Source: Candidatus Micrarchaeota archaeon
GTDB lineage: Archaea; Micrarchaeota; Micrarchaeia; Anstonellales; Anstonellaceae
Direction of reading: 5' to 3'
Assembly: GCA_043810635.1 (NCBI GenBank)
Contig: JBDRNY010000028.1
Coordinates: 1 to 35,167, forward strand
DNA: 35,167 nucleotides
In this document: positions 9,239 to 33,987 of the stretch, in pieces
Layout of the letters: every line of letters begins with the position of its first letter
Position numbering within the stretch: the stretch's first letter is position 1
Position numbers and translations under genes: made by a program
The notes under the pieces: generated by a model
What the model saw: only the letters and a program-made list of their open reading frames with translations
What the model was told of the DNA's origin: nothing
The model's database searches: none

Positions 9239-9350
9239 TTTTCTTTTCTTTTTCCCAAGGGTTTTTCTTTCATATTGTTTTTCTTTTTCCGTTTTCTTTT
9301 TCTTTTCCCGAGGGTTTTCTTTTTCTTTCCCAAAGAAAAAGAAAAGGCTC
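9239..9350. repeat. Family A element (full copy 9292-9350) plus tandem partial copy centred on CCCAAGGG (9254-9261)
   Basis: T4CT5CT4-CCCGAGGG-T4CT5CT3-CCC-A3GA5GA4-GGCTC; abuts the tRNA-Leu 3' end. Confidence 0.85.
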
Positions 9351-9435
9351 TGCAGGGGGAGGGATTTGAACCCACGAACCCCTAAGGGACCAGCCCCTCA
9401 AGCTGGCGCATTTGACCTGGCTTTGCGACCCCTGC
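9351..9435 (-). tRNA. tRNA-Leu(GAG)
   Basis: GCAGGGG/CCCCTGC acceptor, CCAGC-TT-GAG-GG-GCTGG, long variable arm, TTCAAAT. Confidence 0.95.
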
Positions 9436-9503
9436 ACGAACGTCAGTAAGTGCTGGGGGGCAGCGGCCCGTAAGGCCGATCGGACCCCTGCACCAACATC
9501 AGT
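9427..9503. repeat. 21-bp direct repeat of the tRNA-Leu 5' junction flanking a GC-rich hairpin
   Basis: gacccctgcacgaacgtcagt (9427-9447) vs gacccctgcaccaacatcagt (9483-9503), 19/21; CGGCC...GGCCG hairpin between. Confidence 0.75.
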
Positions 9504-9514
9504 TACTATGAATT

Positions 9515-10120
9515 TCATTTTTTCTTTGCCTCTCTTTTCAGCCCCGCAAGCTCTTTTGAGAGCAGGGTGCATTTTTCGGATATAATGTTTGCTGTTTTCA
9601 GGAGTATTTCCCGCGGGGGCATTTGCATAAAGCTTTCCACTTCAAATTCAAAATCTGAAGGATACTCTGCATCACCGAGAGCTTTGTATCCTGCAAGCCC
9701 TGCCTGCCATTTTGCATGCTTCCTCCCGATTCCTGAAATTGCCTTTGCTTCAAGGCGCAAATTCTGCGCTTCCAAAAGCTTTAGCAAAGGCATGCGGTCG
9801 GTTGCAACTTTTATTTTGCTTACTGTGCTTGAAAGGACTGAGGAATATACTGTGCAGGGGCCGGAAGCGTCAAGGGTGAACATAACTTCCTCATCTTCCC
9901 CGACTCCCGCGCCCATGCGCAAGGGAATAAGGCCGATGCGGTGGGCTATGTATTCGTCAAAAAGGGTGCTGCTGTTTTCATACAAAGTCACTTTGTCGAT
10001 TGCAAATGTCGGCACTTGCGACATGGCAAACCTTCTCAAAAGGTTTGCAAATGAAGTTGAAGATGACTTGAGAGTAAACTTCATCTTCAGCTTGTCTTCT
10101 TTTTGCACATTTAATTTCAT
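9515..10120 (-). CDS. rpoD: RNA polymerase subunit D (Rpo3), lacking the Fe-S domain
   Basis: ANLLRR...VPTFAI, NSSTLFDEYIAHRIGLIP, GRKHAKWQ, FEVES. Confidence 0.96.
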   Translation of the reverse strand: MKLNVQKEDKLKMKFTLKSSSTSFANLLRRFAMSQVPTFAIDKVTLYENSSTLFDEYIAHRIGLIPLRMGAGVGEDEEVMFTLDASGPCTVYSSVLSSTVSKIKVATDRMPLLKLLEAQNLRLEAKAISGIGRKHAKWQAGLAGYKALGDAEYPSDFEFEVESFMQMPPREILLKTANIISEKCTLLSKELAGLKREAKKK

Positions 10121-10132
10121 ATCCACAACCCC

Positions 10133-10882
10133 CTATACTCTTCTTCCTCTGCGCCCGCCGGGGCGTTTTGTAGTGTCTGTAGGAACAGGAGTAACATCTT
10201 CAATTTTTCCTACCCGCACTCCCTGCCTTGCAACAGTTCGCACAACCGCCTGCGCTCCGGAGCCGGGTGTCTTTGTTCCGTGCCCGCCCGGTGCGCGTAT
10301 TCTTATATGCAACCCGGTTATGCCTCTTCCTTTTGCCTCATTAACCGCGCGTATTGTTGCCTGCATTGCAGCATAAGGCTTTCCCTCCTCCCTGTCTGAT
10401 TTTACAATCATTCCTCCTGAAGCTTTTGCAAGAGTTTCTGCGCCAGACAAGTCTGTTATTGTTATTATTGTGTCGTTTTTGGATGAATATACATTGCATA
10501 TAGCCCATTTTATCGGGCCCCGCATATAATCTCTGACAGGCCGGCCTCCTCTTTGAAATCTTCCGCCTCCTCTCGGAGGGGCAACTCCCCCGCTCGGCTT
10601 GTCACCTTCACCTTTTTTCTCTGGCTTGAATTCTTTTCCTTCTTCAGCCCTTGTATCTTTTACTTCATCTTTTGCCTCGGTCTTTGCATCTTTTTTTTCA
10701 TCTTTTTTTGCATCTTTTTTTTCAGTTCGCCCTTCTTCTTCTTTTGTATTTTTTTCAACGGGCTTGTGTTCTTCTTTTTTTTCATCTTTTTTTTCTGCCC
10801 GCACTTCCTTTTCGTTTGCTTTCTCGCCTTTCGCCTTTGCCTCGGTTTTTGCATCTTTCTTTTCTTCTTTTTTGTCATCCAT
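10133..10882 (-). CDS. rps11: 30S ribosomal protein uS11 with ~120-aa K/E-rich N-terminal extension
   Basis: [41 protein letters not shown]. Confidence 0.96.
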
Positions 10883-10896
10883 AAAAATCACCTAAT

Positions 10897-11505
10897 TCAT
10901 GCCTTTGCTATCTGCTCCTCTTTTTTCTGCTCCGGAGCTTCTGAAGGTTTTGCCTCTTCTTCTTTTTTCTCGCCACTTTCCTCTTTCGGAGCTGCTCTTG
11001 CACTCTTTGGAGCTTCTTCAGGAGGGCTGATGTCAATTGCCTTGAAATATGAAACAGTGGGCTCTTCCTCTGCAGTAACAATATAGGAAGGTATGTTTAC
11101 CCTTCTTCCTGCAACAGAAATAAATCTGTGGGTAATCAATTGCCTTGCCTGCTTTGGGGTGCGTGCAAGCCCCCGCTTTAGCACAAGGGTTTGCAGCCTT
11201 CTTTCAAGAAAATCCCTGATATTTAATGCCAAAATATCTCCAATGCCCATATCTCCTTTTGCAATTCCAAGGCGCTTTAATTTTGCCACAAGCTTTTGGC
11301 CCCGCCTCTCCCCTTCCTCTCCGAGGGAGAGGAGATTTCTTGCAGTCCGCCTCATTCTTTTTAATTCAGACATTGCTGTCCAAAGCTCTCTTGTTTTCCT
11401 CAATCCATACTCTTTTTTTAGCACAGATTCTTCTTTTATCCTTTCAAGGTCCCACATTTTCCGCGGGGATTCTGCCTTCGGCCTTTTTCGTTTAGGGTCT
11501 CCCAT
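10897..11505 (-). CDS. rps4: 30S ribosomal protein uS4
   Basis: MGDPK, YGLRKTRELW, LERRLQT, QARQLITH. Confidence 0.97.
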   Translation of the reverse strand: MGDPKRKRPKAESPRKMWDLERIKEESVLKKEYGLRKTRELWTAMSELKRMRRTARNLLSLGEEGERRGQKLVAKLKRLGIAKGDMGIGDILALNIRDFLERRLQTLVLKRGLARTPKQARQLITHRFISVAGRRVNIPSYIVTAEEEPTVSYFKAIDISPPEEAPKSARAAPKEESGEKKEEEAKPSEAPEQKKEEQIAKA

Positions 11506-11515
11506 CTAAATCACC

Positions 11516-12175
11516 TTACTTTTTCTCCTCAGCTTTTGGCTTTTCCTTGGGTTTTTCCTCGGCGACTGGCTTTCCCTTTTCTCTTCCTTTGCCTGTCTCT
11601 TCCGCCTTGGCGGCTATTGCCGCGGCTTTCACAGCCTTTCTCATAACACCAACAGTCATTCCGGTTCTGCCTGTGGTTCGGGTTCGCTGCCCGCGCACTT
11701 TCTGCCCGTATGAATGCCGGTATCCTTTCCATGTCTGGGAATCTTTTTCATGCTCAATATCCTGCCTTACAGCATAAATCAAATCTGTTGAAATTGCGTG
11801 TGAAGGGGAATTTGTCTGAAATTCTTTTTGCCTGTTAAGCAGAAAATCATAAACTCCGTATTTTTTCGGATTTGAAAGAATTTGCTCCAATCTGGTTACC
11901 ATCTGCTCGTCAAGCTCGCCAACCAAAATTGTGCTTTTCAATCCAAGCTCTTTTAATGCGATTTTTGACAACATTTTTCCGACTGTAGGGCCTATTCCCC
12001 TTATTGCCTGTATTGCGCGGGTAATTTTCCAGTGCCCTTTCAAATCTCTTCCTGAAATGCGCACAATTCCCCGGATTTCTTTTCCATCCACCGTTGTCGG
12101 GATTTCCTTTTCTTCTTTAGGCCTGTGCTTGCCTTTTCCTTTCTTTTTCTTATCTTTTTTTGTTGCCATTCCCAT
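11516..12175 (-). CDS. rps13: 30S ribosomal protein uS13
   Basis: IVRISGRDLKG, IRGIG, WKGYRH..GQKVRGQRTRTTGR. Confidence 0.96.
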   Translation of the reverse strand: MGMATKKDKKKKGKGKHRPKEEKEIPTTVDGKEIRGIVRISGRDLKGHWKITRAIQAIRGIGPTVGKMLSKIALKELGLKSTILVGELDEQMVTRLEQILSNPKKYGVYDFLLNRQKEFQTNSPSHAISTDLIYAVRQDIEHEKDSQTWKGYRHSYGQKVRGQRTRTTGRTGMTVGVMRKAVKAAAIAAKAEETGKGREKGKPVAEEKPKEKPKAEEKK

Positions 12176-12236
12176 TCAATTCACCATAACACAAATTACT
12201 TTTTTTAATACAAAAATTTCGCCGGAGGTTTGAATT

Positions 12237-12372
12237 CGCCGGAGGTGGGATTTGAACCCACAAGCCCTAACGGGCACATGCTCCCTGTTTTTTCTTTTTA
12301 ATTAAATTTTTTCTTTTCAAAAAAGAAAAAATTATTCCAGGCATGCGCACTACCAGGTTATGCGACCCCGGC
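12237..12372 (-). tRNA. tRNA-Ser(GGA) with a 52-nt intron at position 37/38 (12283-12334)
   Basis: GCCGGGG/CTCCGGC acceptor, CATGC-CT-GGA-A [intron] A-GCATG, long variable arm GCCC-GTTA-GGGC, GTGGG-TTCAAAT-CCCAC. Confidence 0.92.
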
Positions 12373-13209
12373 ACGAACTTCAGTGAGTACTGCTTTTGGG
12401 AGGATTTTTTCATTTTCCACTCTCCCAATTGCTATTAAATCTCCCTCCTTATTTCGTAATTTTACTTCCGTGCCTTCCTTTAATTTTGCCTCATCATATG
12501 CCACACCGGACAGCGCCAGAGGCGCGCCGCGGCATACTGAATCTATGGCCTTATCCTTAATCATAATAGAAGGCAGTGTAAACATATCGTCGGCGGGCTT
12601 TATTAATCTTTTTATGAGGGAAGAGTCCCCTTTCCCTCGATAAATTGCCATTCCGTCCTGCAAATCTGAAAGAGAAATGAGCATTTTCTCATCGATATTG
12701 CCTATTGCAACTCTCCTCAATTCCAGCATTTTTCCTCCTTCAAATGCTTTCCCAACATCTTGGCATAAATTTCTTATATAAGTGCCTGCTTCAACCCTCG
12801 CCCGAAATAAAATATTTTTTCCGTCCATTTCAATTGCCTTAAACTCGTAAATTTCCCTTTTTCGCTTTCTTTTTGCAACTGCAGAATGGAGGGGGGGAAT
12901 TTGCTCTATTTTTCCTATAAATTTATTCATTTCTTTTTGCACAATTTCAATATTGGAAGGAGGATTTCTTATTCTCATTACTCCGACATAAGTTTTCTCT
13001 TTTCCAACAACAAACCTCAGCAATTTTGTTGCCTTGTTTATGCCAATTACCATCACGCCGGATACTTGGGGGTCTAGGGTGCCTGCATGCCCTGTTTTTC
13101 TCACCCCCAATAATTTCCTGACATAAGCAGTCACTTCATGGGAAGAAGGGCCCCTCGGCTTGTCTAGCAATATAAACCCCGCATTAAGCAAATTTTCAAC
13201 AGATTGCAT
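12358..13209 (-). CDS. cbf5: H/ACA RNA-guided pseudouridine synthase Cbf5 (TruB family)
   Basis: LDKPRGPSSHEV, GHAGTLDP (catalytic Asp), QIPP..SAV, AGTYIR, compact PUA domain. Confidence 0.95.
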   Translation of the reverse strand: MQSVENLLNAGFILLDKPRGPSSHEVTAYVRKLLGVRKTGHAGTLDPQVSGVMVIGINKATKLLRFVVGKEKTYVGVMRIRNPPSNIEIVQKEMNKFIGKIEQIPPLHSAVAKRKRKREIYEFKAIEMDGKNILFRARVEAGTYIRNLCQDVGKAFEGGKMLELRRVAIGNIDEKMLISLSDLQDGMAIYRGKGDSSLIKRLIKPADDMFTLPSIMIKDKAIDSVCRGAPLALSGVAYDEAKLKEGTEVKLRNKEGDLIAIGRVENEKILPKAVLTEVRAGVA

Positions 13210-13244
13210 GGAAATTCCTCAAGCTCTTTAAAGCACATCAAAAT

Positions 13245-13270
13245 CCAACAATAAAAACTTTTAATGTTGG
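13245..13270. promoter_or_regulatory. Near-perfect 26-bp palindrome containing TATA-like boxes for the divergent cbf5 and TPR genes
   Basis: CCAACA-A-TAAAA-AC-TTTTA-A-TGTTGG; TTTTAA lies about 27 nt before the TPR ATG. Confidence 0.5.
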
Positions 13271-13290
13271 CAATATAATAATGTTGTTAT

Positions 13291-14343
13291 ATGGAAGGCA
13301 GTCATCGGTTTGGATCAGGCTACTACCCAGAAAAAGCAACTCCGGGAAATGACTTATTCAGAGATAGGAATAGTGCCAGAAAAACTATGCTAGAGATTGC
13401 GCTGGATTACCTTAAAAATAAGGAATTTAGATTGGCAATAGGTGCATTTACAGAAGTGATAGAAAATTATGAAAGCATGAATAAAAACAGCGATAAATAC
13501 TCTTGTAAAAATCTGGCTCAGGCATATTGCGGGAGGGCTAAAGCATCCATATGGATTAAAAACCGTGAGGATGCGCTGGAAGATTTTAGCAAAGGAATAG
13601 AAATTTACTCACGAAGAGATGACTCGACATGCGACTACCGTAACTCAGAAGCACGCAACCAAAGGGCAAATTTATATATACGAGCAGGAAAATTTGAAAA
13701 AGCGGAAGAAGACCTTATTGAGGCAAAAAGACTAAACCCAGATAACTTTCATACATATAATAATTTTGGAAAATTAAGACATAAGCAAGGCAAGTATTGC
13801 CAAGCAATTGAAAATTTTGAAAAAGCAATTAAAATAAATCCAAGATACTTCTCTTCCTACTCCTTTCTTGCAGACGCATTTCTGCATATAGGTAAATATG
13901 AGAAAGCAATAGAAAGTTATACTAGAGCAATAAAATACGGAAGAAATAATATATATCATTATAACGAACGAGGAAGGGCAAAATTATTTCTTGAAAACAA
14001 AAAGAGGGAAATTGCGGATTATAGTAGTGCTATTGAAGATTTTGACATGGCAATAAAACTAAAGAAAGACCATGTGTTTGCCTGGGCAAACAGGGGGATA
14101 GCATATTATAAAAGTGGAAATTATGATGCTGCCATTGAAAATTTGAAATGGGCAGATGAACTGACAAGAAATAATGGAGGGAGGAAGGCAGGTACAGACG
14201 TGTACTTTTATCTGGCAAAAGCATATTCTGAAAAAGGAGAGTATGGACTTGCAGAGGAGAACATCAAAAAAGCCATAAAGCTTAGGGAAAAGCCGAAATA
14301 TGTGAAATTGCTGGATGATATCCAGAATATTCGCAAATATTAA
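13291..14343 (+). CDS. Tetratricopeptide repeat protein
   Basis: Multiple TPR units (TYNNFG...AIENFEKAIKINP; AWANRGIAY...AAIE). Confidence 0.92.
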   Translation: MEGSHRFGSGYYPEKATPGNDLFRDRNSARKTMLEIALDYLKNKEFRLAIGAFTEVIENYESMNKNSDKYSCKNLAQAYCGRAKASIWIKNREDALEDFSKGIEIYSRRDDSTCDYRNSEARNQRANLYIRAGKFEKAEEDLIEAKRLNPDNFHTYNNFGKLRHKQGKYCQAIENFEKAIKINPRYFSSYSFLADAFLHIGKYEKAIESYTRAIKYGRNNIYHYNERGRAKLFLENKKREIADYSSAIEDFDMAIKLKKDHVFAWANRGIAYYKSGNYDAAIENLKWADELTRNNGGRKAGTDVYFYLAKAYSEKGEYGLAEENIKKAIKLREKPKYVKLLDDIQNIRKY

Positions 14344-14409
14344 TAAACACTGTGTGTATAAAAAGCCGAAATTGCGCATGTTATATGCATTCCAAGGCGG
14401 AAAAAGGAA

Positions 14410-15303
14410 TTAGCTTATAATTGCCGCACCAATAAAAGCAAGCAATGCACCGACAATTTTTTGCACCCAGCCTTTTCTTTCTTTCAAAAATATTATTCCC
14501 CCCAATGCTGCAACTATGACAAATGTATTAAACAGGGGAATAACAACTGATGCCTCGATTTTTGCCAGGGAAAGAAGCAAGAAAACATGGGAAACGGCTG
14601 CAAATGCGGAAAGCAAAAGCGAAACCCATGGCCTTTTTTCAAAAACTTTGCCGGTTCTTTCAAATGCTTTTTTTCCCATCATTGCAAAAAATATAATTGT
14701 CGGAATTATGAAGAGGGGGATGGCGTAAATAAGGGGCGGGAATAATTGGGAATTTACCCTGTCAATTACATGGCCTGAAGCAACAAACAAGGCTGCAAAC
14801 AAAATAAGCCCGACTCCTGCAAGCTTGAATTTGCCCCCTGGGCGGTAAATGCAAATTACTGAACCTGCCAAAATAAGCAAGCCTGCAAATATTTTCTGCC
14901 CGGTAATAACTTCTGAAAGAAACAAAAATGCAAGAAGCATTCCCCATATTATTTCAGTCTGGCCGAGGATTGGGCGTATGGAGCCTTCCACTGTTTGGCT
15001 ACCTTTGAATGTAAAGTAGATAAATACGGCATAAAAAACTCCTGCTAATGCCATAAGAATCCAGTTTAGCTGGGGAATTTCGCCGATGGGGGGCTTGCCT
15101 TCTGTTGCAAAATCAAATCCGAAAGTTAATATTAGCAAAAGAAGGAATGCTACTGTAGCGCCCTCAGTTAGGGCGAGTGATGCCAGATAATCTTTCTCAT
15201 CTTTATTCAAAACCCTTACAAGAAGGCTCCATGCTGCGGTTGTAAGTATTGAAAGTACCAACCAGCCCATTGGAGGAAGCAAATCATATGGATTAAACAG
15301 CAT
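14410..15303 (-). CDS. EamA/DMT-family transporter (paralog 2)
   Basis: About 10 TM helices in two repeats (FLSEVIT.QKI; FLKERK...KIVG). Confidence 0.9.
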   Translation of the reverse strand: MLFNPYDLLPPMGWLVLSILTTAAWSLLVRVLNKDEKDYLASLALTEGATVAFLLLLILTFGFDFATEGKPPIGEIPQLNWILMALAGVFYAVFIYFTFKGSQTVEGSIRPILGQTEIIWGMLLAFLFLSEVITGQKIFAGLLILAGSVICIYRPGGKFKLAGVGLILFAALFVASGHVIDRVNSQLFPPLIYAIPLFIIPTIIFFAMMGKKAFERTGKVFEKRPWVSLLLSAFAAVSHVFLLLSLAKIEASVVIPLFNTFVIVAALGGIIFLKERKGWVQKIVGALLAFIGAAIIS

Positions 15304-15329
15304 GTAAATTCACTTTCAAACTAGGTTTA

Positions 15330-16229: not shown

Positions 16230-16263
16230 AAGAAATCAACAAAAAGAAAGAATAAAAAGAAAA

Positions 16264-16446
16264 CTATGAGCTTACCGCAACATCAGTAGGCTCAAGGTGC
16301 TTTATTGCACACTTTCTTTCCTTTTTTCTTTTAGGGCTTTTTATCATTACACAATTGTTGTCCACAACTTTTGTAACAACCACTTTTTCGCCCGCATCTC
16401 TTCCTGCAAGCTTGACGCAAATTCTTCCCGGTTTTATTGCACTCAT
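16264..16446 (-). CDS. rpl14e: 50S ribosomal protein eL14 (60 aa)
   Basis: GRICVKLAGRDAG.KVVV, HLEPT. Confidence 0.94.
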   Translation of the reverse strand: MSAIKPGRICVKLAGRDAGEKVVVTKVVDNNCVMIKSPKRKKERKCAIKHLEPTDVAVSS

Positions 16447-22052: not shown

Positions 22053-22108
22053 TTTTCTTTCTTTTTCCCGAGGGTTTTTCTTTCTTTTCTAAAGAAAGAA
22101 AAAGGCTC
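22053..22108. repeat. Family A element
   Basis: T4CT3CT5-CCCGAGGG-T5CT3CT4-CT-A3GA3GA5-GGCTC; perfect 14-nt mirror; overlaps the rpl30 stop. Confidence 0.88.
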
Positions 22109-22676
22109 ATATCATTCTTTTCAATAATTCATCAATTGATTCTCTAGGCCCCAAATCTCCCATTGGATAGCGCTTTTTCCTGTTTTTCCATCCTTTTCTG
22201 GGGGGGTGGAGCCGGAAATTTCTGTTTATGCCAACTTCCTTGGGGGATTTGCCTGAAAATAATTGGGATGCAATTTTTTCAATTTCATCTTCTTTTTTCA
22301 ACTCAGAAAGCTTCTTTTTTCCGATTTGCCCTCTTTTTGAAAGCAATTTTACAAGCATATCTTTGCTGATATTGCCCCATGTAACATAATCCTTGCATTC
22401 CAAAAGCATTCCGTTGTAAGAGGGGGATGTGTGGATTATTGTTGCCTGGTTGGAGCGTATTAAGTTGAGCATTTCAATAGTGTATTTTCTTTTGGGGTGG
22501 ATGCCGGTTATGCCCCTTACTCGCACTATTGCAATAACCGCCGGCTTGTGAGAAGCTTCTTTTATTTCATTTTCTGTTTTAGCCGGGCTTGCATTTTTTG
22601 CCGGGTTTTTGATTTTTTCATGCTTATTTCCGGAATTTTTTGCCGGTTTTTTTGCAATTTCTTTTTTCTTTTCCAT
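22107..22676 (-). CDS. rpl30: 50S ribosomal protein uL30
   Basis: AIVRVRG, GML..CKDYVTWG, FRLHPPRKG, GDLG.R. Confidence 0.95.
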   Translation of the reverse strand: MEKKKEIAKKPAKNSGNKHEKIKNPAKNASPAKTENEIKEASHKPAVIAIVRVRGITGIHPKRKYTIEMLNLIRSNQATIIHTSPSYNGMLLECKDYVTWGNISKDMLVKLLSKRGQIGKKKLSELKKEDEIEKIASQLFSGKSPKEVGINRNFRLHPPRKGWKNRKKRYPMGDLGPRESIDELLKRMI

Positions 22677-22774
22677 AAGTATCATCTTGTTTCTTTCTTT
22701 TCCCGAGGGTTTTCTTTCTTTTCAAAGAAAGAAAAGGCTCTTTTCCATAAGTATCATCTTGTTTCTTTCTTTTC
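22667..22774. repeat. Family A element (22690-22740) within an exact 36-bp direct repeat of the rpl30 start region
   Basis: tcttttccataagtatcatcttgtttctttcttttc at 22667-22702 and 22739-22774. Confidence 0.9.
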
Positions 22775-26835: not shown

Positions 26836-26855
26836 ATCAATTCACGATTTAAAAA

Positions 26856-27557: not shown

Positions 27558-27569
27558 AAACATCATCTT

Positions 27570-28001
27570 TCAATTCTTTTTTTCACCAACTATTTTTTTC
27601 TCATCATTTTTCTGCACCGGTGCGGAAGAAACTTTTTTTCCGGAACGCTCCAGCATTGCCTTCCTGTCTTTGAGGGAAAAATCCCCCTCGATAATTTCCG
27701 TATTTGAAGGCTGGATTGCAATCATTTTTTCAATCCCTTTTGCGTTTTTCCTTGTCAGCCCTTCAACATAAATAACAAGGTCGGAATAATCCGCCTCCAT
27801 AACAGTGCCGGTTTTTCCTTTCAAATTTCCGACAACCACCTTCACCTTGTCCCCTTTTCTCACAACAGCCGCCCTTCTTGAAGTGCCCAATTTCTGGCGC
27901 AATTCTTTTGAAAGGTGGGTGTGCATCATTTTTCTCCTTTTGTGCAATGGGGCCTGCGCGCGCGCCTTGCGCTGTTTTCTTGGCTGTATTGAACTTGCCA
28001 T
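27570..28001 (-). CDS. rpl24: 50S ribosomal protein uL24
   Basis: SIQPRKQRK...APLH, LSKELR, VRKGDKVKV, IQPSN. Confidence 0.96.
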   Translation of the reverse strand: MASSIQPRKQRKARAQAPLHKRRKMMHTHLSKELRQKLGTSRRAAVVRKGDKVKVVVGNLKGKTGTVMEADYSDLVIYVEGLTRKNAKGIEKMIAIQPSNTEIIEGDFSLKDRKAMLERSGKKVSSAPVQKNDEKKIVGEKKN

Positions 28002-28011
28002 CATAAGCACC

Positions 28012-28410
28012 TTACACAACTGCGGGGGATATTGCCGCAACTTTCGGAAACCTGTCTGCAACTTCCCGGGCTATTGCACCTTTGATTTCGGTTCCTACAG
28101 GAAGCCCCTGGTCATCTATAATAACAACCGCATTATCCTCAAAGCAAACCCTCATGCCGTTGGGGCGGCGGTACATTTTTTTCTGCCTTATTATAACCGC
28201 TTTCATTACCTTGCCCCTTGTGGCAGTGGTTCCTTTTTTCACAGAAACTATTACAATATCTGCCACTCCTGCTTTCGGATACATTCTGTATTTTGCTTTT
28301 GCGCCTTTTATGCCGATTATTTCCACTATCTTTGCTCCCGAATTGTCATTGCATGCCATCCTGCTTCCTATGTGCAAACAGCGGCTTATAGTAGCGCCCA
28401 ATCCTTTCAT
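28012..28410 (-). CDS. rpl14: 50S ribosomal protein uL14
   Basis: DNSGAK, VSVKKG, AVIIRQ, FEDNAVVI, KGAIARE. Confidence 0.97.
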   Translation of the reverse strand: MKGLGATISRCLHIGSRMACNDNSGAKIVEIIGIKGAKAKYRMYPKAGVADIVIVSVKKGTTATRGKVMKAVIIRQKKMYRRPNGMRVCFEDNAVVIIDDQGLPVGTEIKGAIAREVADRFPKVAAISPAVV

Positions 28411-28467
28411 ATTTATTCACCATTATTTTTTTCTTTTTCCTCTTTTATTTCATTTTTTTTCTTTTCA

Positions 28468-28515
28468 TTTTCATTTTTTGCCTTGCCGGCTTTTCCATAA
28501 TTATTTTTTTCTTTT
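28468..28515. repeat. Family C spacer repeat, copy 2
   Basis: ttttcattttttgccttgccg-gct-tttccataattatttttttctttt. Confidence 0.8.
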
Positions 28516-29006
28516 CATTTTTCCTCGTTTATTTCATCCTCCATTATTCTCTCTTCTTTTTTCGCCCTGTCTTGTTTTTTGTTTTCATCGGTTTTTTCGG
28601 ATTTTTTGTCATATTCTTTTCTTTCGGCTTTTCCTCCGTGTTTCCTCATATGGGCACGCTGGGCTTCGTCATGGGCTTTTACCTGCCCAGGCATAAGATG
28701 GCCTTCTCCTTTTTGTACTATTTCCGTGACTATCCATGCTTTTGTTTTGGATATTTTGCGGCATTCTGCTATTTCCACAACATCCCCAACTTGCGCGCTT
28801 ATTTCATCAGGGTTGTGGGCCGCTATTTTGGATATTTTGCGGGCATATCTTTTGTATTTTGGAACATATGTGACCATGTCCCTTTGCACAATAACAGTGC
28901 GCTTTGAGCGGTCTGATACAACCACTCCCTGCAATGTAAGCCCGCGGGTGGGCATTGTGGATACTCCTTTATTTTCTGCCATTAAATCAAACCCATTAAC
29001 ATTCAT
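28515..29006 (-). CDS. rps17: 30S ribosomal protein uS17 with charged C-terminal tail
   Basis: RG..LQGVVVS, PKYKRY, AHNP, GDVV.IAECRKISKTK; start could be 28982. Confidence 0.95.
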   Translation of the reverse strand: MNVNGFDLMAENKGVSTMPTRGLTLQGVVVSDRSKRTVIVQRDMVTYVPKYKRYARKISKIAAHNPDEISAQVGDVVEIAECRKISKTKAWIVTEIVQKGEGHLMPGQVKAHDEAQRAHMRKHGGKAERKEYDKKSEKTDENKKQDRAKKEERIMEDEINEEK

Positions 29007-29272
29007 TACTTCAGTTTCGCATACAACCTCTTGCTCCTTTCTTCAGGCCGCACCTGCGCAGCATTTAAATCCAATATTTTTTTGGAATTTGCTATTTGCG
29101 CTTTTGCACCTTTTTTGGGAACAACTTTTCTTTCATTTTTTTCTGTGAGCAATGTGACGGTGTTGAGTGTTTCGCGCACAATTTTCCCCTCAATTCCGAT
29201 ATTGTTCGGATTTGGGGAATTGGTTATGCGAACATTCAATCCAATCCATTCTTCAGCCATTTCAATATTCAT
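29006..29272 (-). CDS. rnp1: Ribonuclease P protein component 1 (Rpp29)
   Basis: EWIGL.V.I, GIEGKIVRET.N, VPK, RPEER; synteny. Confidence 0.92.
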   Translation of the reverse strand: MNIEMAEEWIGLNVRITNSPNPNNIGIEGKIVRETLNTVTLLTEKNERKVVPKKGAKAQIANSKKILDLNAAQVRPEERSKRLYAKLK

Positions 29273-29586
29273 CGCCTGCTCACTCCGGGCACCACAGTTA
29301 TTGAATCAGGAGCATAACCAAGCGATACCAGAAGGTTTTTCATTTTCTGCAGATGGTTTCCCTGCAAAACAACAATCCCTTCCTTCACCGTTCCCCCGCA
29401 GGCAAGCTTTTGCTTCAGCTTTTTTGCGGTTTCGGCAAGCTTGTCTTTGTCAAGCCCCTCAATAACGGTTACCAATTTCTTGAACCGTTTTCTTGTGGCA
29501 TATACCCTCAATCTCACATCTTCTTTTTCGATTGCGTCGGATATTATTTCCCTCATCAGTTCGTCCTTCGGAAATATGTTCCCCAC
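29269..29586 (-). CDS. Translation initiation factor aIF1 (SUI1 family)
   Basis: RFKK.VTVIEG, LKQKLACGGTVK, LQGNH; GTG start with SD GAGGTGA. Confidence 0.94.
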   Translation of the reverse strand: MGNIFPKDELMREIISDAIEKEDVRLRVYATRKRFKKLVTVIEGLDKDKLAETAKKLKQKLACGGTVKEGIVVLQGNHLQKMKNLLVSLGYAPDSITVVPGVSRR

Positions 29587-29595
29587 TTATTCACC

Positions 29596-29862
29596 TCATT
29601 TTTTTGCGTCCGCCTTCTTTGAAGGCGCCGCCCTCTTTATCTCTTCTTTCTCACCTTTCTTCAAATCCTCCCTTCTTGAAAGGATTGTGAGTATTCTTGC
29701 AATTGTCTTGCGGAGCTCGCGGATTCTTCCCGGGTTTTGGGAGCGGCCTCCGCCTGCAACCATCCCTTTTTCCGAATTGAGCTCTTTTCTTAATTCAAAG
29801 AGCTTTTGCTCCAAAGATTTTGAATCCATCTCATGAATTTCTCTTTTTCTTATTATTGCCAT
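29596..29862 (-). CDS. rpl29: 50S ribosomal protein uL29
   Basis: MAIIRKREI..M, NPGRIRELRKTIARILT. Confidence 0.95.
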   Translation of the reverse strand: MAIIRKREIHEMDSKSLEQKLFELRKELNSEKGMVAGGGRSQNPGRIRELRKTIARILTILSRREDLKKGEKEEIKRAAPSKKADAKK

Positions 29863-29882
29863 AAACATCATCATATAGCCAA

Positions 29883-30644
29883 CTATTTTTTCCTGTCCCT
29901 TCTGCCTCTCTTTCTTTCTTCTTTTTTCTTGTCATCGTCATCAGAGCCGCTTCCTGCAAATGAAATCGCTTTTCTGCTTCTTTGCGGCACGCCTGCCTGC
30001 TCCCCGTCGGTTATATCTGCTGCTTTTGAAATTACATTCGGCACTTCCACTTTGCTTACTTCTCCTTTGTCAGGGAAAATTGTGCCCGGCATTACAAGTC
30101 TTACCAATACTCCGATTGCCCCCGCCTTTGGATAGGCAGTAACATGGGATACGCGCACAAGGCGGGCAGGCTCTCCTGCTTTTGGAACATGACCCGCGGC
30201 AACGCGAAGAGCTTTTGCCCTTCCCCCTTTTGCTGCCAATTTTCCTGAAGCGATTATTTCCCCTCCCAAAGCTCCTGCAGACATAATATCCCGGAGGGAG
30301 GAGTGGAGTATGGCTCTGGGCTTTTTGCCCATTTCAATAAACCTGCAAACTTTTTTTGCAATAAGCCGCGGCTCTAATTCCGGCCTTTTGGATTCGGAAA
30401 CCGAAATCTGGGGATTTTCAATTTTGAAATTTTTTGCAATATTGTCTGTAAGCTCGCGTATTGTCCTTCCTTTCTTTCCAATAACCCTTCCCGGGTTTGT
30501 TACTTCCACACCTATTCTTGTAACCATGGGGGTGCGCTGGATGTCAACATGGGTAAATCCGGCTCTGTCCAACTCTTTTTCCAAATACTTGGATACCTGG
30601 TAGCGGATTATCGCCTCGTCAACAAATTTCTTTTCAACACCCAC
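29883..30644 (-). CDS. rps3: 30S ribosomal protein uS3
   Basis: EKKFV, RAGF, RTP, PGRVIGKKG, GALGGEI..SGKL. Confidence 0.96.
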   Translation of the reverse strand: MGVEKKFVDEAIIRYQVSKYLEKELDRAGFTHVDIQRTPMVTRIGVEVTNPGRVIGKKGRTIRELTDNIAKNFKIENPQISVSESKRPELEPRLIAKKVCRFIEMGKKPRAILHSSLRDIMSAGALGGEIIASGKLAAKGGRAKALRVAAGHVPKAGEPARLVRVSHVTAYPKAGAIGVLVRLVMPGTIFPDKGEVSKVEVPNVISKAADITDGEQAGVPQRSRKAISFAGSGSDDDDKKKEERKRGRRDRKK

Positions 30645-30665
30645 TTCAAAACACCTTCAATATCA

Positions 30666-31607
30666 TTAATTTGATTTTTTAGCTTTTCTTGAATTTTTCT
30701 GCTTTTTTAATATTTCGGACATTTTCGGCTTTTTTGTTTTTTCTTCCATTTTTGCATTATCAACTTTTTTCTTTTCTTCCTCTTTTTTTATTTCAACCTT
30801 CTTTGTTTCGGATTCGATTTTCGGCTTTTCCTCTTTTTTAACATCAACTTTTTTTGTTTCGGATTCGGCTTTCGGTTTTGCTGTTTCAATTTTCTTTTTT
30901 TCTTCTATTTTCTTTTCACCTAGCTCGGCTTTCGGCTTTTCCTCTTTTTTAACATCAACTTTTTTTGCTTCAATCGGCTTTGCAACCTGCTTTTCCTCTT
31001 CTTTTTTTACCACAACCGCTTTTGTTTCGGGAATGGCCGGTTTTGCTGCGGGTGTGGCTTGTGGTTTTGCTGTTGGAGTTGTTTCGGCTTTTTTTTCTGC
31101 GGGTGTTGGTTTTGCGATAGTTGGTTTTTTTGTTTCAGTTGGCTTTGCTTCTTTTTTCTCCCCTGTTTTCAATTCCCTTAGCACAATTTCAACAAATGCT
31201 GTTTCAAAATCCTGCCTGTTTCTTCTTCCTTTTGCAGCCATGCGCGGGTAAACCTCCTGCTTGTTTGCTGCAATATGAATAATTTTGCACTCCCCCATGC
31301 CTTTTGCCATTGCATTTGCATAAGCATTTTGCAATACATTAAGCACAATTTTCACGGATTTTACAGGCCAACCGCCTTTCTTTCCTCCAAATTCGCGAAG
31401 ATGCCCTCTCCTCTTATTATGCCTGAAATATCTGATAGGCCTTTTCTTTTCCAGTGCTTCTGAAAGAAATTGGATTGCCTTGTCTGCGCGCCTTCCCCTT
31501 ACATTTGCGCATACATTGCACAAATCCCGGTAGCTGGCATCCACTCGGTCAATTCGCGCGCGCGCCGTCATGGCATCTTTTTCTTTTGGCTGGTATCCAT
31601 ATGCCAT
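30666..31607 (-). CDS. rpl22: 50S ribosomal protein uL22 with ~165-aa P/A/K/E-rich C-terminal extension
   Basis: C..VRG, GWPVK, NA.ANA..KG, IIHIAA, R.A.GR, VEIVL.E. Confidence 0.94.
   Translation of the reverse strand: MAYGYQPKEKDAMTARARIDRVDASYRDLCNVCANVRGRRADKAIQFLSEALEKKRPIRYFRHNKRRGHLREFGGKKGGWPVKSVKIVLNVLQNAYANAMAKGMGECKIIHIAANKQEVYPRMAAKGRRNRQDFETAFVEIVLRELKTGEKKEAKPTETKKPTIAKPTPAEKKAETTPTAKPQATPAAKPAIPETKAVVVKKEEEKQVAKPIEAKKVDVKKEEKPKAELGEKKIEEKKKIETAKPKAESETKKVDVKKEEKPKIESETKKVEIKKEEEKKKVDNAKMEEKTKKPKMSEILKKQKNSRKAKKSN
30819..30967. repeat. 38-bp in-frame repeat in the uL22 tail (KKVDVKKEEKPK x2), period 111
   Basis: 30819-30856 equals 30930-30967. Confidence 0.85.
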
Positions 31608-31617
31608 AATTATTTCC

Positions 31618-32022
31618 CTACTTGAGCGGTATAAATTTGGAGCCTCTGGTTGCGCCTATGCCAGGGCCTGAGTGAAGCACTCTTCCTGTGCTGTGCGCAA
31701 AATCCCCTAATCTGTATCCTAATTTATCCACTGTTATTTGAATTTCCTTAAACACTTTTCCGTCATGCACTCCGAATTTCATTCCAAGCCAGGAAGGGAG
31801 TATTGGGGCGTCCCGCACATGGGTGCGGATTATTTTGTCTTTTTTTGCTTTTTTAGTTTCAATTGCTTTTTTGATTAATTTTTTGAGCTTGATATTTCTT
31901 CCTTCCATTGCCCTCTTTACCGCCCTTCTTGCGCGGCTGGTGAGAAGAGGAAGAGAATCCTCTAATGAAAGAGCTTCAAGCTCATTTTTTGACAAACCCC
32001 TGTATTTATCTATGCGAACCAT
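31618..32022 (-). CDS. rps19: 30S ribosomal protein uS19
   Basis: YRG, SRARR, IRTHVRD, HSGPGIGATRGSKFIPLK. Confidence 0.97.
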   Translation of the reverse strand: MVRIDKYRGLSKNELEALSLEDSLPLLTSRARRAVKRAMEGRNIKLKKLIKKAIETKKAKKDKIIRTHVRDAPILPSWLGMKFGVHDGKVFKEIQITVDKLGYRLGDFAHSTGRVLHSGPGIGATRGSKFIPLK

Positions 32023-32032
32023 TTATTCACCT

Positions 32033-32767
32033 TTATACTGTCCTGGTTTTTTTCCTCCCTGTTGATTTTGCTGCTATATGCCCCACTTTTCTTCCGGGCG
32101 GTGCACCCCTGCTTGTGCAGGAGCTTGTCCCCTTGTGATGCTGTTTTCCTCCGTAAGGATGGGTGTATGCATTCATCTTCACTCCCCTTACTTTTGGCCA
32201 AAGCCTGTTTTGGGCATGCTTTTTGTAATGATTTGCTCCTGCTTTTAGAAGAGGCATTTCCAATCTTCCCCCTCCGGAAAGCACTCCAAGCTCTGCGCGG
32301 CAATTTCCTTGCAATTCCACCACTTTTTTTGAAGGCAGCTTTACATATATTTTTCCTTCTTCTTTTGACACAAGCACCCCGTATGCACCGGGTGCGCGGA
32401 CCATTTTTCCGCCGTCTCCGGGGAAAAATTCAATATTGCAAATATACATTCCTTCGGGAATATTTTCAAGAGGCAAAACACAGCCCCTCTCAACCGGCGC
32501 ATCTGCACCGCTAAATATTTCATCGCCAATTGCAATTCCTTCGGGCGCGGGCAGGTGCAATTCGTCGCCATTTGTAAATTTGATATGCATTAAAATTGTC
32601 TGATGTCCGGGGTCGTCAACAAATTCCATCACTTCTCCGCGCAATTTTCCTGATTTTTCTATCTCATCCATTCCTCTGAAGCTTATTTTTGCCTTGTAGC
32701 GGTGGGAGGGGGCTCTGTATGCATTGGAGCCTTTTCCCCTTCTTTGCTGTTTCAATAATTTGCCCAT
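32033..32767 (-). CDS. rpl2: 50S ribosomal protein uL2
   Basis: MGK...QRRGKG, PSHR, DPG, PGDGGK.VR, WPKVRG..MN...HPYGG. Confidence 0.97.
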   Translation of the reverse strand: MGKLLKQQRRGKGSNAYRAPSHRYKAKISFRGMDEIEKSGKLRGEVMEFVDDPGHQTILMHIKFTNGDELHLPAPEGIAIGDEIFSGADAPVERGCVLPLENIPEGMYICNIEFFPGDGGKMVRAPGAYGVLVSKEEGKIYVKLPSKKVVELQGNCRAELGVLSGGGRLEMPLLKAGANHYKKHAQNRLWPKVRGVKMNAYTHPYGGKQHHKGTSSCTSRGAPPGRKVGHIAAKSTGRKKTRTV

Positions 32768-32776
32768 TTTTTTCAC

Positions 32777-33061
32777 CTAAACAATCTTAAGCTGAGCCGC
32801 AATATCGTCAGCTTTTCCTTCTTTTAATTTCACATAAGCATGCTTCAATCCCTTCGGGGTGATTTTGGTATTAACCCTCGCCACTTTCACTTTAAACAAA
32901 TACTCAACTTCCTCTTTTATTATTTTTTTGTGTGCATTCGGATTTACAACAAATGTTAATTGGTTTGCAAATTCTATCATTGAAATTGCCTTTTCAGTTG
33001 TAATAGGGTAGAGGAGGATTTTCCCTTCCCCGACTTTTATTTCATCTTTCTTTTGATCCAT
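32777..33061 (-). CDS. rpl23: 50S ribosomal protein uL23
   Basis: PITTEKA, NQLTFVV, LFKVKV..VNT, K.AYVKL. Confidence 0.96.
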   Translation of the reverse strand: MDQKKDEIKVGEGKILLYPITTEKAISMIEFANQLTFVVNPNAHKKIIKEEVEYLFKVKVARVNTKITPKGLKHAYVKLKEGKADDIAAQLKIV

Positions 33062-33073
33062 AAATATCATCCG

Positions 33074-33865
33074 CTATTTCTTTGCTAACTCATCAAGCGC
33101 TTTTTTTGTATATGCCGCCAGCCTTCCTGCTTTTGCGCCGGGCGCCAAGTCAAGCACTTTCAATTCTTTTGCAGAAACCACATCAATTCCCGCAATATTT
33201 CTTGCGGCATGCGCAAATTTTGATTTTGCATCCTCAACTACAAGCAAAAGGGATTTGGGCCTTCTTTTTCCGCCCTTCCTTGTGCGCACTCCGCTTCTTT
33301 TCTTTGATTTCTTTCCCCTTTTCAAATCATCATTAATTCCGATTGCATTCAGCAATTTTTGCGCAATTTTTGTTTTTTCAATATTTTCGCATGTTTCATC
33401 AAATATTATCGGCAAACTGAATTTTGCAGGCAATTTGTGCCCGCGGGCAATTATATATTCAGAAGAAGCGGTTGCGGCAAGCGCAGAACGCAATGCCTTC
33501 ATATATTCTTTTTTGTTTATTTTTTCAATAATAATTTTCTCAACTTTCGGGGGGTGCGCCCTTCTTCCTTTAACAGAAGAGGGTATCCTCCTTACTTTTC
33601 CAAACCTTCCTTTTGGAAGCACTTCCCTTGGAAGCATTGCAATTCCCTTGTTCTTTATTGAGCCATAGTCATCTTTTCTTCCCCTGTATTTTGCAGATGT
33701 TTGCATTCCGGCGCGCTTATACGGCGCTTTTGGCTGGTATTGCTTTGTCTGGTCTGAAATAGCCGCGCGCGCAATCAAACCAAGTCTTACAGGCTCTTCA
33801 AATAGGGAAGGGAGTGAAATTTCCCCGCTCTTTTTCCCGTCATTTGAATATACATCAGCTTTCAT
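33074..33865 (-). CDS. rpl4: 50S ribosomal protein uL4
   Basis: LP.LF.E.VR..LI.RA, AGMQTSA, GRRAHPP, KINKKE, LAPG...GRL. Confidence 0.96.
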   Translation of the reverse strand: MKADVYSNDGKKSGEISLPSLFEEPVRLGLIARAAISDQTKQYQPKAPYKRAGMQTSAKYRGRKDDYGSIKNKGIAMLPREVLPKGRFGKVRRIPSSVKGRRAHPPKVEKIIIEKINKKEYMKALRSALAATASSEYIIARGHKLPAKFSLPIIFDETCENIEKTKIAQKLLNAIGINDDLKRGKKSKKRSGVRTRKGGKRRPKSLLLVVEDAKSKFAHAARNIAGIDVVSAKELKVLDLAPGAKAGRLAAYTKKALDELAKK

Positions 33866-33878
33866 AAATATCATCTTA

Positions 33879-33987
33879 TTTCTTTCTTTTCCCGAGGGTT
33901 TTCTTTTCTTCCCTACAAATTGCCGAAGGCAATTTGGGGTCCCAAATCGCGAAGCGATTTGTAGGATCGTAAAGAAAGAAAAGGCTC
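33879..33987. repeat. Family A element with a family B double hairpin (33912-33965) in its loop, flanked by 14-bp direct repeat ctttcataaatatc
   Basis: T3CT3CT4-CCCGAGGG-T4CT4CT2-[B]-A3GA3GA4-GGCTC; repeats at 33860-33873 and 33987-34000. Confidence 0.88.

Follow-up and report, generated by a model that had tools for sequence, protein, structure and literature searches.

The dispersed repeats in the 35,167-nt archaeal DNA stretch analyzed here (the window) are best explained as local representatives of a large archaeal family: short fold-back elements that belong to the "intrastrand triplex motif" type. The three arms of the element co-vary, the elements are insertions, and duplications of their flanks are frequent.

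Element architecture

On the gene strand, which is the minus strand of the window, an element reads GAGCC, pyrimidine arm Y, short loop, purine arm R, GC linker and purine arm R'. R is the Watson-Crick pair of Y and R' is the mirror of R in each copy. The small GC linker in the clear window copies is CCCTCGGG, read on the minus strand. Three consecutive homopurine/homopyrimidine blocks in the order Y, R, third strand, the layout of class II / class IV intrastrand triplex motifs (Hoyne-Maher and Holder), were found in 4/4 clear window copies and in 124 short-loop elements from this genome and its relatives, which are kin, so that counts over them overstate independence. Elements are about 45-130 nt in size, with matching arms of 8-14 nt and a mean uninterrupted Y/R complementarity of 11.3 nt. 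The hairpin loop has a median of 2 nt (range 0-9), and the non-purine part of the linker has a median of 5 nt (range 3-14). The elements fall within the ITxF search criteria (stems 6-15 nt, loops 1-6 nt), with a minority of linkers longer than 6 nt. The shortness of the loops resembles that of designed fold-back triplexes.

The Y/R hairpin is closed by a 3-bp helix (GAG/CTC) with a conserved C.C mismatch step. This helix co-varies (GAG/CTC 27, AAG/CTT 6, TAG/CTA 5), and 38/41 of its pairs are Watson-Crick, 2 are wobble and 1 is a mismatch. R' is in register with Y past the hairpin, either as CC against GG or into the loop. A Watson-Crick partner for R' lies within 80 nt downstream in 24/123 copies and upstream in 7/123, and about three quarters of the copies have no such partner nearby. 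The GAGCC end is sharp and conserved and the opposite end is variable; on the plus strand, the sequence downstream of GGCTC differs from copy to copy. Termini of the form AGCC...GGCT, comparable to the terminal inverted repeats of a MITE (miniature inverted-repeat transposable element), occur in some long forms alone (3/123 in the strict test, e.g. L019). The hairpin was the minimum-energy fold in 6/6 folds, and nearest-neighbor folding, which leaves out base triples, shows the hairpin alone.

Copies in the window

Re-reading of the sequence bore out all six stretches of the initial annotation (Table 1). The arm formulas were correct (T4CT5CT4/T4CT5CT3/A3GA5GA4, T4CT3CT5/T5CT3CT4/A3GA3GA5 and T3CT3CT4/T4CT3CT4/A3GA3GA4), the core CCCGAGGG plus GGCTC was found in 4/4 clear copies, and the 33879 copy has a deviant Watson-Crick pyrimidine arm with the other two arms matching. 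All six copies lie outside genes in a single orientation, as had been described; this orientation is that of the neighboring minus-strand genes. A seventh window member inside a tRNA intron had been overlooked, as had the direct repeats that flank the 22690 copy (exact) and the 33879 copy (imperfect).

Table 1. Elements and related features in the window.
Feature	Position	Strand	Location	Remarks
Three-arm element	9292..9350	-	Directly 3' of tRNA-Leu(GAG) (9350-9436)	DNA fold: hairpin closed by GAG/CTC, third arm free
Parts of the 9292..9350 element	GAGCC 9350-9346; Y arm; R arm; linker 9314-9307; R' arm to 9292	-		Linker CCCTCGGG
Purine tracts and mirror-only half copy	9200..9291 (half copy 9239-9271)	-		Half-copy linker CCCTTGGG
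Three-arm element	22053..22108	-	Between L30 and L15	Fold z-scores -3.4 and -3.8
Three-arm element	22690-22740 within 22669..22774	-	Between S5 and L30	
Three-arm element	33879-33987 within 33860..34016	-	Between L3 and L4	
Degenerate composite	7473..7632	-	After tRNA-Pro(GGG) (7633-7706)	
Family member	12288..12331	-	In intron of type II tRNA 12236-12373	Rfam tRNA match 12237-12372; arms T6CT5 / A4GA6 / A5GA6, linker TTTAATT

The GAGCC of the 22053 copy (22108-22104) overlaps the L30 stop codon TGA. The exact 34-36 nt direct repeat at the 22690 copy (22669-22702 and 22741-22774) contains the third arm, the ribosome-binding site and ATGGAAAA of L30. The 33879 copy has a nested two-hairpin insert of about 60 nt inside its hairpin loop, and its imperfect flanking repeat of ~30 nt spans the L4 ribosome-binding site and start codon. 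The composite after tRNA-Pro holds a short Y/R hairpin, a nested two-hairpin insert like that of the 33879 copy, and a long purine mirror repeat around CCCCTTG. The region adjoining the tRNA-Leu copy is an incomplete tandem duplicate of the unit R-linker-R'-CGG-purine tract. No Rfam family other than tRNA matched the window at gathering score, and the tRNA matches numbered three.

Covariation of the three arms

The check proposed in the initial annotation, three-arm covariation in a larger copy set, was carried out on the 124 elements by comparing the longest common run of R' with the mirror of R and with R itself. The mirror run was longer in 90 elements, equal in 27 and shorter, by 1 nt, in 7. 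Where the difference was at least 3 nt, the mirror was ahead 40 times and the direct match 0 times. The 66 distinct arms gave a mirror/tie/direct ratio of 43:17:6. The mean mirror match was 10.26 with an element's own partner and 8.04 ± 0.14 with shuffled partners, and 0/2000 shuffles reached the observed value. An independent set of 39 full elements from an all-prokaryote scan had a longer mirror run in 30, a tie in 9 and the opposite in 0. The mirror relation is beyond chance and statistically robust in the larger copy set.

Three-way matching was found for 47 distinct arm sequences. These contain 0 GG steps compared with 8.8 ± 2.5 expected (0/5000 shuffles), which is the rule for isolated C+.G-C triads. 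All three arms have changed together between orthologous tRNA-Thr(CGU) introns of two genera (A5GA3GAGA vs A4GA4GAGGG). A weak test for the hub arm, on the columns where Y and R disagree, mostly at arm ends, showed R' following Y in 14, R in 7 and neither in 11. Aperiodic arms are mirrored, not repeated (AAAAAGAGAG / GAGAGAAA and GGAAGAGAAAGAAA / AAAGAAAGAGAA). A strict core-plus-flank filter retained 9/66 CCC[AG]AGGG sites in the 1.11 Mb genome, and a backwards-read control pattern was nearly absent, with 0 matches in 41 genomes compared with 6 genomes for the real pattern. The 47 matching arms, the mirror excess, the partner shuffles, the missing GG steps and the tRNA-Thr introns support the original proposal of structural selection on three triplex-arranged arms. 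Templated copying, the other source suggested, cannot yield a mirror repeat.

Insertion and flanking duplications

The L3/L4 site is empty in 4/4 same-genus genomes, and the S5/L30 and L30/L15 sites are each empty in 3/3 readable ones. The three ribosomal-operon copies of the window are absent from four same-genus genomes and are therefore insertions, which answers the empty-site comparison suggested at the outset. A second occurrence of the 5' junction 10-mer lies no more than 260 nt downstream in 15/119 elements, compared with 3/119 for a control 10-mer located 40 nt further upstream. Duplicated target flanks occur in at least 8 genomes, and the repeats are 11 to 62 nt long. In contig C87, the duplicated start of a NusA-like gene carries 6 coding differences, all synonymous, for which a simple recent local duplication does not account.

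The initial annotation had considered a mobile element or a processing/attenuation signal in ribosomal-protein operons. Mobility, or at the least insertion, is supported by the empty sites and target duplications. The processing/attenuation role is not supported, and the family is not specific to these operons, being associated as much with tRNA genes and introns.

tRNA genes and introns

ARAGORN places 19/124 copies inside tRNA genes, 19/19 in the sense orientation, and a further 25 no more than 60 nt from a tRNA. Copies within tRNA introns make up at least 15 percent of the total, and all of these are sense. The 80/124 copies located away from any detected tRNA are an upper bound, since ARAGORN under-detects. 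The element begins 0-2 nt after position 37 in the introns read, which belong to Ile, Arg, Thr, Ser, Asn, Met, Trp and Tyr tRNAs. One Tyr tRNA, with a 70-nt insertion in the anticodon loop, was confirmed by Rfam. The intron copy in the window begins 2 nt past the anticodon loop A, and the anticodon region of its host tRNA reads GGA by eye.

The six stretches first described are not bulge-helix-bulge introns; they are sited after tRNA 3' ends or between protein genes. The repeated flanks, inspected by eye, cannot form the bulge-helix-bulge central helix. The central 4-mer must be self-complementary and the 22690 copy has GGAA, so by eye there is no bulge-helix-bulge there. Micrarchaeota are described in PMC3239211 as having a broad-specificity epsilon2 splicing endonuclease and many introns, and a recent preprint states that the arrival route of archaeal tRNA introns is open (10.64898/2026.10.13.758758).

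Distribution among archaea

The hosts are tiny symbiotic archaea (DPANN) with minimal genomes. The family was found in 28/176 genomes of the order (Anstonellales), and strict patterns detected an element in 0/4 other genomes of the same genus. The CCCTCGGG form is known from several archaeal phyla, and GAGCC and CCCTCGGG are kept across phyla. A Pacearchaeota record has tandem identical copies at contig ends (L164/L175). A search of the viral contig collection gave no match to the motif, and reverse transcriptase (PF00078) had 0 matches in the 82-percent-complete genome.

Discussion

The joint best explanation, to which we give about an even chance of being right, combines a three-stranded fold of single-stranded DNA, template switching by polymerases and persistence at harmless sites. 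The selected structure would be a three-stranded fold of one nucleic-acid strand with the third arm in Hoogsteen-type (mirror) register. It would arise when replication, or transcription in the wake of RNA polymerase, leaves the DNA single-stranded. The strand with two pyrimidine arms, which in the window is the plus strand and the template strand of the genes, could form T.A-T and C+.G-C triads, and the gene strand may be capable of a weaker purine-motif fold. Polymerases would stall at or bypass the folded template and switch templates, so that the element is copied and its flanks are duplicated. Copies would survive where they are harmless: in tRNA introns, at tRNA ends, in intercistronic spacers and at extreme gene ends. 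Those in tRNA introns would be removed by the broad-specificity splicing endonuclease, and those at gene ends would be tolerated when the duplication leaves one gene copy intact. At transcribed sites, only the orientation that gives the RNA one U-rich tract, not two, would persist. The bacterial PIT, BoxC and TM-ECO repeats are described in PMC4666352 as having the same Y-loop-R-loop-R' order, forming triplexes in vitro and occupying rearrangement-prone loci, and such triplexes can arrest polymerases.

Several points count against this explanation. Purine-motif triplexes are weak when A-rich and reportedly do not form in RNA (work cited in PMC4666352), but it is the RNA-like strand that carries the purine motif. 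The pyrimidine motif is on the template of the genes, not on the strand usually exposed. By reasoning, the GAG/CTC closure and the third-strand fold look sterically hard to accommodate together on the pyrimidine-motif strand. The weakness of the hub-arm test, the synonymous differences in the C87 duplication and the kinship of the copies also count against it. We infer the copying mechanism from junction anatomy only. A more specific reading, that these are self-copying triple-helix elements of DPANN and Altiarchaeota which fold as single-stranded DNA, duplicate themselves by template switching and give rise to a new intron upon landing in a tRNA gene, is tentative and rather unlikely. If true, it would supply the missing source of archaeal tRNA intron gain and the best comparative evidence so far for intramolecular triplexes in living cells.

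The structure could instead be selected in the sense RNA, as a module of bulge-helix-bulge tRNA introns from which the non-tRNA copies are strays. A stable hairpin that starts just past the 5' splice site, with a purine tail, would aid folding or splicing or stabilize the excised intron. The all-sense copies in tRNA genes, the copies close by, the start next to position 37 and the Micrarchaeota endonuclease with its many introns favor this module, and the retention of GAGCC and CCCTCGGG across phyla suits a conserved recognition factor. However, up to 80/124 copies lie away from any tRNA detected, the flanks of the mRNA-side window copies are by eye unable to form the splice motif, and the third arm mostly has no Watson-Crick partner. 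We know of no role for a mirror purine arm in RNA. According to work cited in PMC4666352, RNA does not form purine-motif triplexes, and overall this alternative seems improbable.

That the element is mobile but non-autonomous, with its enzyme encoded at another place, or that it descends from intron RNA turned back into DNA, is doubtful to a similar degree. The arms would be recognition or priming sites, and the element could seed tRNA introns like eukaryotic introner elements. Mobility agrees with the empty sites, the target duplications, the sharp GAGCC end with its variable far end, the patchy spread and the tandem Pacearchaeota copies. However, the duplications are unlike the fixed stagger of a transposase, the arms vary between copies of one genome as simple copy-and-paste would not produce, and the searches of the 82-percent-complete genome and of the viral contig collection returned neither the reverse transcriptase nor the motif, respectively.

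In ENE/MALAT1-type triple helices, an A-rich tract is clamped by two U-rich strands that carry isolated C and are separated by a small stem-loop. An antisense RNA from the window plus strand could similarly shield an A-rich 3' end in a U.A-U / C+.G-C triple helix, as it has the same order of Hoogsteen arm, small stem-loop, Watson-Crick arm and A-rich tract near the 3' end and obeys the isolated-C rule. Intrastrand triplexes of the pyrimidine motif are known to form in RNA (cited in PMC4666352). This reading is nevertheless very unlikely: the ENE/MALAT1 layout here sits on the strand antisense to the tRNAs and ribosomal-protein genes, no promoter or defined 3' end was seen, and the sequence after GGCTC varies. 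Least probable is that the pattern arose by chance from low-complexity (A3-5 G)n tracts, with arms made alike by slippage; the purine-rich coding strand of the genome is full of such tracts and many arms are nearly periodic, hence the 27 ties, but the 124-element mirror test with its shuffles, the independent 39-element set, the mirrored aperiodic arms and the backwards-read control contradict it.

The preferred explanation, a selected single-strand DNA fold, bears on the long-standing question of intramolecular triplexes in vivo, for which most candidates are near-identical repeats and silent on selection. Here, dozens of different arms keep a three-way match, the type of argument that established RNA secondary structures. 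The family supplies short defined sequences for melting, CD and probing. An element that is both intron content and a fresh insertion with duplications is a concrete candidate for the origin of tRNA introns. The elements occupy ribosomal protein and RNA polymerase operons and tRNA genes, and they interfere with gene prediction: ARAGORN overlooks the interrupted tRNAs or labels them wrongly, and L4 acquires a false N-terminal extension.

Comparison with known systems

The initial statement that no archaeal family of this kind had been described held in literature searches. The closest known kind is the PIT/BoxC/TM-ECO repeats of E. coli and other bacteria (Holder et al. 2015, PMC4666352, which cites Hoyne and Maher 2000 and 2002 on intrastrand triplex motifs). 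These share the one-strand order pyrimidine, loop, purine, loop, reverse-Hoogsteen purine (their class II), the pyrimidine-motif potential on the complementary strand, and many dispersed, mostly intergenic copies that are uneven among close relatives and lie at rearranged loci. The bacterial arms are G/C-rich and the repeats near-identical, whereas the archaeal arms are A/T-rich with isolated G/C and differ per copy yet stay matched. In this comparison, only the archaeal family has the extra co-varying closing helix with a conserved C.C mismatch, archaeal hosts, tRNA-intron copies and flanking target duplications. Folding of the bacterial repeats was seen in vitro, and the archaeal family is known from sequence alone.

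Like H-DNA mirror repeats, R-linker-R' has what H-DNA requires of a sequence: a homopurine.homopyrimidine mirror repeat interrupted by a short spacer. Unlike H-DNA, the element also carries a Watson-Crick arm as a third arm on that strand, which allows each single strand to fold alone, and R' stays in register with Y past the hairpin, a feature that classical H-DNA can do without.

Archaeal bulge-helix-bulge tRNA introns resemble the family in that related short sequences recur in different tRNA introns and tRNA flanks, and the hosts have a broad-specificity splicing endonuclease. Intron transposition has been proposed for Thermoproteales (as cited in PMC3239211). Unlike such introns, the element also occurs outside tRNAs with target duplications, the five non-intron window copies have no splice motif, and the three-arm triplex pattern is undescribed for introns.

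Arrangement of Family A elements

All six stretches of the window described in the initial annotation as Family A, a dispersed three-arm fold-back element, were inspected and read as stated. The neighboring genes (RpoN, tRNA-Pro, S2, RpoD, tRNA-Leu, L18e, S5, L30, L15, L3, L4 and L23) all lie on the minus strand. On that strand its parts are, in order, GAGCC, pyrimidine arm (Y), 0-4 nt loop, purine arm (R), linker CCCTCGGG and another purine arm (R'). Y and R are reverse complements, and R' is R read backwards, which makes it the complement of Y in the same reading direction. As single-stranded DNA, either strand is predicted to fold into a hairpin with a GAG/CTC closure and a 2x2 C.C (or G.G) step, leaving the third arm free; fold z-scores of the elements range from -1.6 to -3.8. 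A further member, overlooked in the initial annotation, lies inside a tRNA intron, and tRNA was the only family matched in an Rfam search of the window.

Some elements carry in the hairpin loop a nested module of two hairpins with TTCG-like loops in the frame CCTACAAA...TTTGTAGG. The hairpin sequences of this module vary from copy to copy and its layout is constant. At the L3/L4 site, an open frame (33074-34006) runs from an upstream ATG through the entire 33879 element into L4, a false 46-residue extension; comparison with four relatives places the true L4 start at the ATG near 33866.

Additional member, nested modules and flanking direct repeats of Family A elements
Feature	Location	Context	Direct repeat
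Additional member	window 12288-12331	inside tRNA intron	
Nested module	window 33905-33970, minus strand		
Nested module	window 7515-7600, minus strand		
Nested module	contig C5 480-596		
Nested module	contig C32	tRNA-Asn intron	
Element with repeat	window 22690 copy	S5/L30	34-36 nt, exact
Element with repeat	window 33879 copy	L3/L4	~30 nt, imperfect
Element with repeat	contig C36 7140-7320		62 nt, exact
Element with repeat	contig C87 2780-2960	NusA-like gene start	57 nt, 7 differences; 6 coding, all synonymous
Element with repeat		before a tRNA-Thr	19 nt of tRNA 5' end, differences acceptor-compatible
Element with repeat	contig C44		15 nt of a tRNA 3' end
Elements with repeats	other genomes		11, 21 and 23 nt

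The three arms co-vary in mirror register

The genome and loci of relatives yielded 154 distinct candidates, of which 124 had A-rich arms and hairpin loops no longer than 12 nt and were kept. The mirror relation was scored as the unanchored longest common run, with equal freedom for mirror and direct alignments. This score replaced an earlier anchored test built on an automatic linker-stem finder (mirror 0.68 versus direct 0.79), in which long linkers were mis-anchored. R' matched the mirror image of R over a longer run than R itself in 90 elements, tied in 27 and was shorter by one base in 7, all with near-symmetric arms. Differences of ≥3 favored the mirror alignment in 40 elements and the direct alignment in none. 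Counting distinct R arms once (n = 66) gave mirror:tie:direct = 43:17:6, and a multi-phylum independent set gave 30:9:0. The mean match of 10.26 for true partners compares with 8.04 ± 0.14 when R' arms were swapped, and 0 of 2000 shuffles reached the observed value, which upholds the three-arm co-variation noted in the initial annotation.

The mirroring is seen directly in aperiodic arms, with AAAAAGAGAG, GGAAGAGAAAGAAA and AGAAAGAAGA in R becoming GAGAGAAA, AAAGAAAGAGAA and AGAAGAAAG, respectively, in R'. Between tRNA-Thr(CGU) introns of two genera, the prefix and linker are common and all three arms differ together. GG steps are absent from the 47 distinct three-way matching arms, compared to 8.8 ± 2.5 expected from composition. 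The closing trinucleotide changes at its first base together with the linker (GAG/CTC 27, AAG/CTT 6 and TAG/CTA 5), and 38 of 41 are Watson-Crick pairs. Ordinary pairing does not explain the conservation of R', because a Watson-Crick partner within 80 nt is rare (24/123 downstream, 7/123 upstream). The initial annotation had also offered templated copying as the source of the arms; this is excluded since a polymerase cannot make a mirror repeat. We can offer no explanation for these patterns other than structural selection, with the purine tracts read in a Hoogsteen-type register. The comparative data support well a triplex-type constraint on the arms of this candidate triplex.

Family size and distribution

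In the window's 1.11-Mb genome (89 contigs, 40.6% G+C), scanning by composition alone (a Y run, an R run, a short linker and another R run) identified about two dozen true members, which have linkers of several types. The strict CCCTCGGG pattern occurred in 6 of 41 related genomes, with 0/41 for the control read backwards. Within the order, 28 of 176 genomes contained a looser AGCC-anchored pattern, and backward-control matches were rare. Scanning one genome per prokaryotic species for R6-AAACCCTCGGGAAA-R6 returned 48 loci. Their record titles name Nanoarchaeia, Nanoarchaeota, Woesearchaeota, Pacearchaeota, Aenigmatarchaeota, Micrarchaeota, Altiarchaeota, Thermoplasmata and a Hydrothermarchaeaceae archaeon. 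Of the 49 distinct matches, 39 have the whole layout with GAGCC, and two bacterial matches have no Y arm and look like chance. The motif had 0 matches in a viral contig collection, and a search of the window's genome for reverse transcriptase found none. The initial observation is confirmed, and the family extends beyond the window.

Insertion and flanking duplications

The three ribosomal protein sites are compact in same-genus genomes (~70% DNA identity). The element is absent from L3/L4 in 4 of 4, from L30/L15 in 3 of 3 and from S5/L30 in 3 of 3 readable genomes, the fourth S5/L30 locus being incomplete; the comparison of orthologous spacers proposed in the initial annotation thus turned up empty sites. 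After tRNA-Leu, one genome of another genus has a clear three-arm element with other arms, and same-genus genomes have degenerate elements (two) or none (two more). The empty sites between the ribosomal protein genes show insertion of Family A elements, whose mechanism and function we infer.

Many elements are flanked by direct repeats of the target sequence (table). An automatic test found that the 10-mer at the 5' junction recurs ≤260 nt downstream in 15 of 119 elements, compared to 3 of 119 for a control 10-mer lying another 40 nt upstream. In every case the repeat leaves the gene end intact in one copy. At the two repeat-flanked copies in the window, the repeated unit starts directly after the closing helix and takes in R'. 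A polymerase that skipped the folded template and then re-aligned would generate a repeat starting at this point with R' included. The alternative is a target duplication of variable length at insertion, and we cannot tell the two apart. The synonymous-only differences at C87 fit neither process in its simple version. There, the ribosome-binding site and 14 codons of a NusA-like KH-domain gene are duplicated on both sides of the element, and the duplicated gene starts look like a pair of alleles that have each evolved as coding sequence.

Family A is not alone in showing target duplication: downstream of tRNA-Pro(GGG), two same-genus loci (L129 and L138) carry a different two-hairpin insert in its place, and a direct repeat made up of the final ~15 nt of the tRNA and the bases after it flanks this insert. 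The C36 element has CAATTAGC after R', as do elements of two other genomes, and a C/D-box-like stretch (ATGATGA ... CTGA) lies just downstream of it.

tRNA introns and other gene contexts

According to ARAGORN, 19 of the 124 elements lie within tRNA genes, every one of them in the sense direction, and 25 more ≤60 nt from a tRNA; both counts are lower bounds because interrupted tRNAs are mislabeled or missed. In the introns read, the element starts 0-2 nt after position 37, and one tRNA-Tyr with an element was confirmed by Rfam. Micrarchaeota have many introns and a splicing endonuclease that accepts relaxed motifs (PMC3239211). The element may create introns or may only survive in them. Introns at D-loop or T-loop positions were not confirmed with 150 nt of flank: an Rfam tRNA match was obtained at 1 of 10 loci, and once the stretch was excised in silico, tRNAs were recognized at 2 of 14. 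One of these two (L151) was rejected as an intron, being a duplicated 21-nt 5' tRNA fragment ahead of an intact tRNA, and several of these cases may be duplications instead of introns. Splicing of the mRNA-side copies was ruled out by eye, the repeated flanks being unable to form the central helix. A simple terminator, with Y after tRNA 3' ends and stop codons (longest T run 4-6), does not fit the tRNA-intron copies.

The intron-bearing genes on contigs C74, C89 and C42 were called tRNA-Pyl and tRNA-Stop by ARAGORN, and the window tRNA at 12236-12373 was labeled Pro with GGA in the anticodon region; these calls are artefacts of long introns. Two elements of one related genome (L056 and L051) are in-frame and stop-free in the N-terminal coding regions of methionyl-tRNA synthetase and archease. 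Both are in the same frame (AFSFYKKENP-EEKKYN, translated by eye), and translation would add 20 residues to each protein unless the element is somehow removed. Related genome G034 (loci L049-L071) usually has after R' a conserved TATAAGTGYAAG-like dodecamer that resembles an archaeal TATA box.

Strand and nucleic acid of the fold

By the classes defined for bacterial motifs (PMC4666352), the gene strand (Y-R-R') belongs to class II (purine motif) and the opposite strand to class IV (pyrimidine motif). An arm composition of ~83% A/T, in which C is isolated, fits T.A-T and C+.G-C triads and so favors the pyrimidine motif. R' also keeps register with Y beyond the hairpin, which counts in the same direction. 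R' follows Y in all four cases of an internal hairpin mismatch read by eye (the window 33879 copy, contigs C89 and C30, and locus L058). Over all elements, scoring whether R' follows Y or R gives 84:35:5 for Y, much of it due to a CC/GG flank that is blind to parallel or antiparallel reading; arm columns alone give only Y:R:neither = 14:7:11. RNA reportedly does not adopt the purine motif (cited in PMC4666352). Copies in detected tRNA genes and the inspected mRNA-side copies of the window's genome are all oriented with Y-R-R' in the RNA. A fold at the DNA level is therefore favored. The orientation bias may mean that transcripts avoid carrying two U-rich tracts, or a stable RNA triplex.

Comparison with known systems

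Family A presumably resembles the ENE/MALAT1 RNA triple helices. The initial annotation knew of no archaeal family like it, and no description was found in the openly accessible literature. Among described elements, the PIT/BoxC/TM-ECO intrastrand triplex repeats of enterobacteria and other bacteria come closest; they fold into triplexes in vitro, mark rearrangement-prone loci and have an identical block order (PMC4666352). Family A differs from these repeats in its A/T-rich arms with isolated C, extensive arm co-variation, co-varying closing helix, ties to tRNA introns and flanking duplications.
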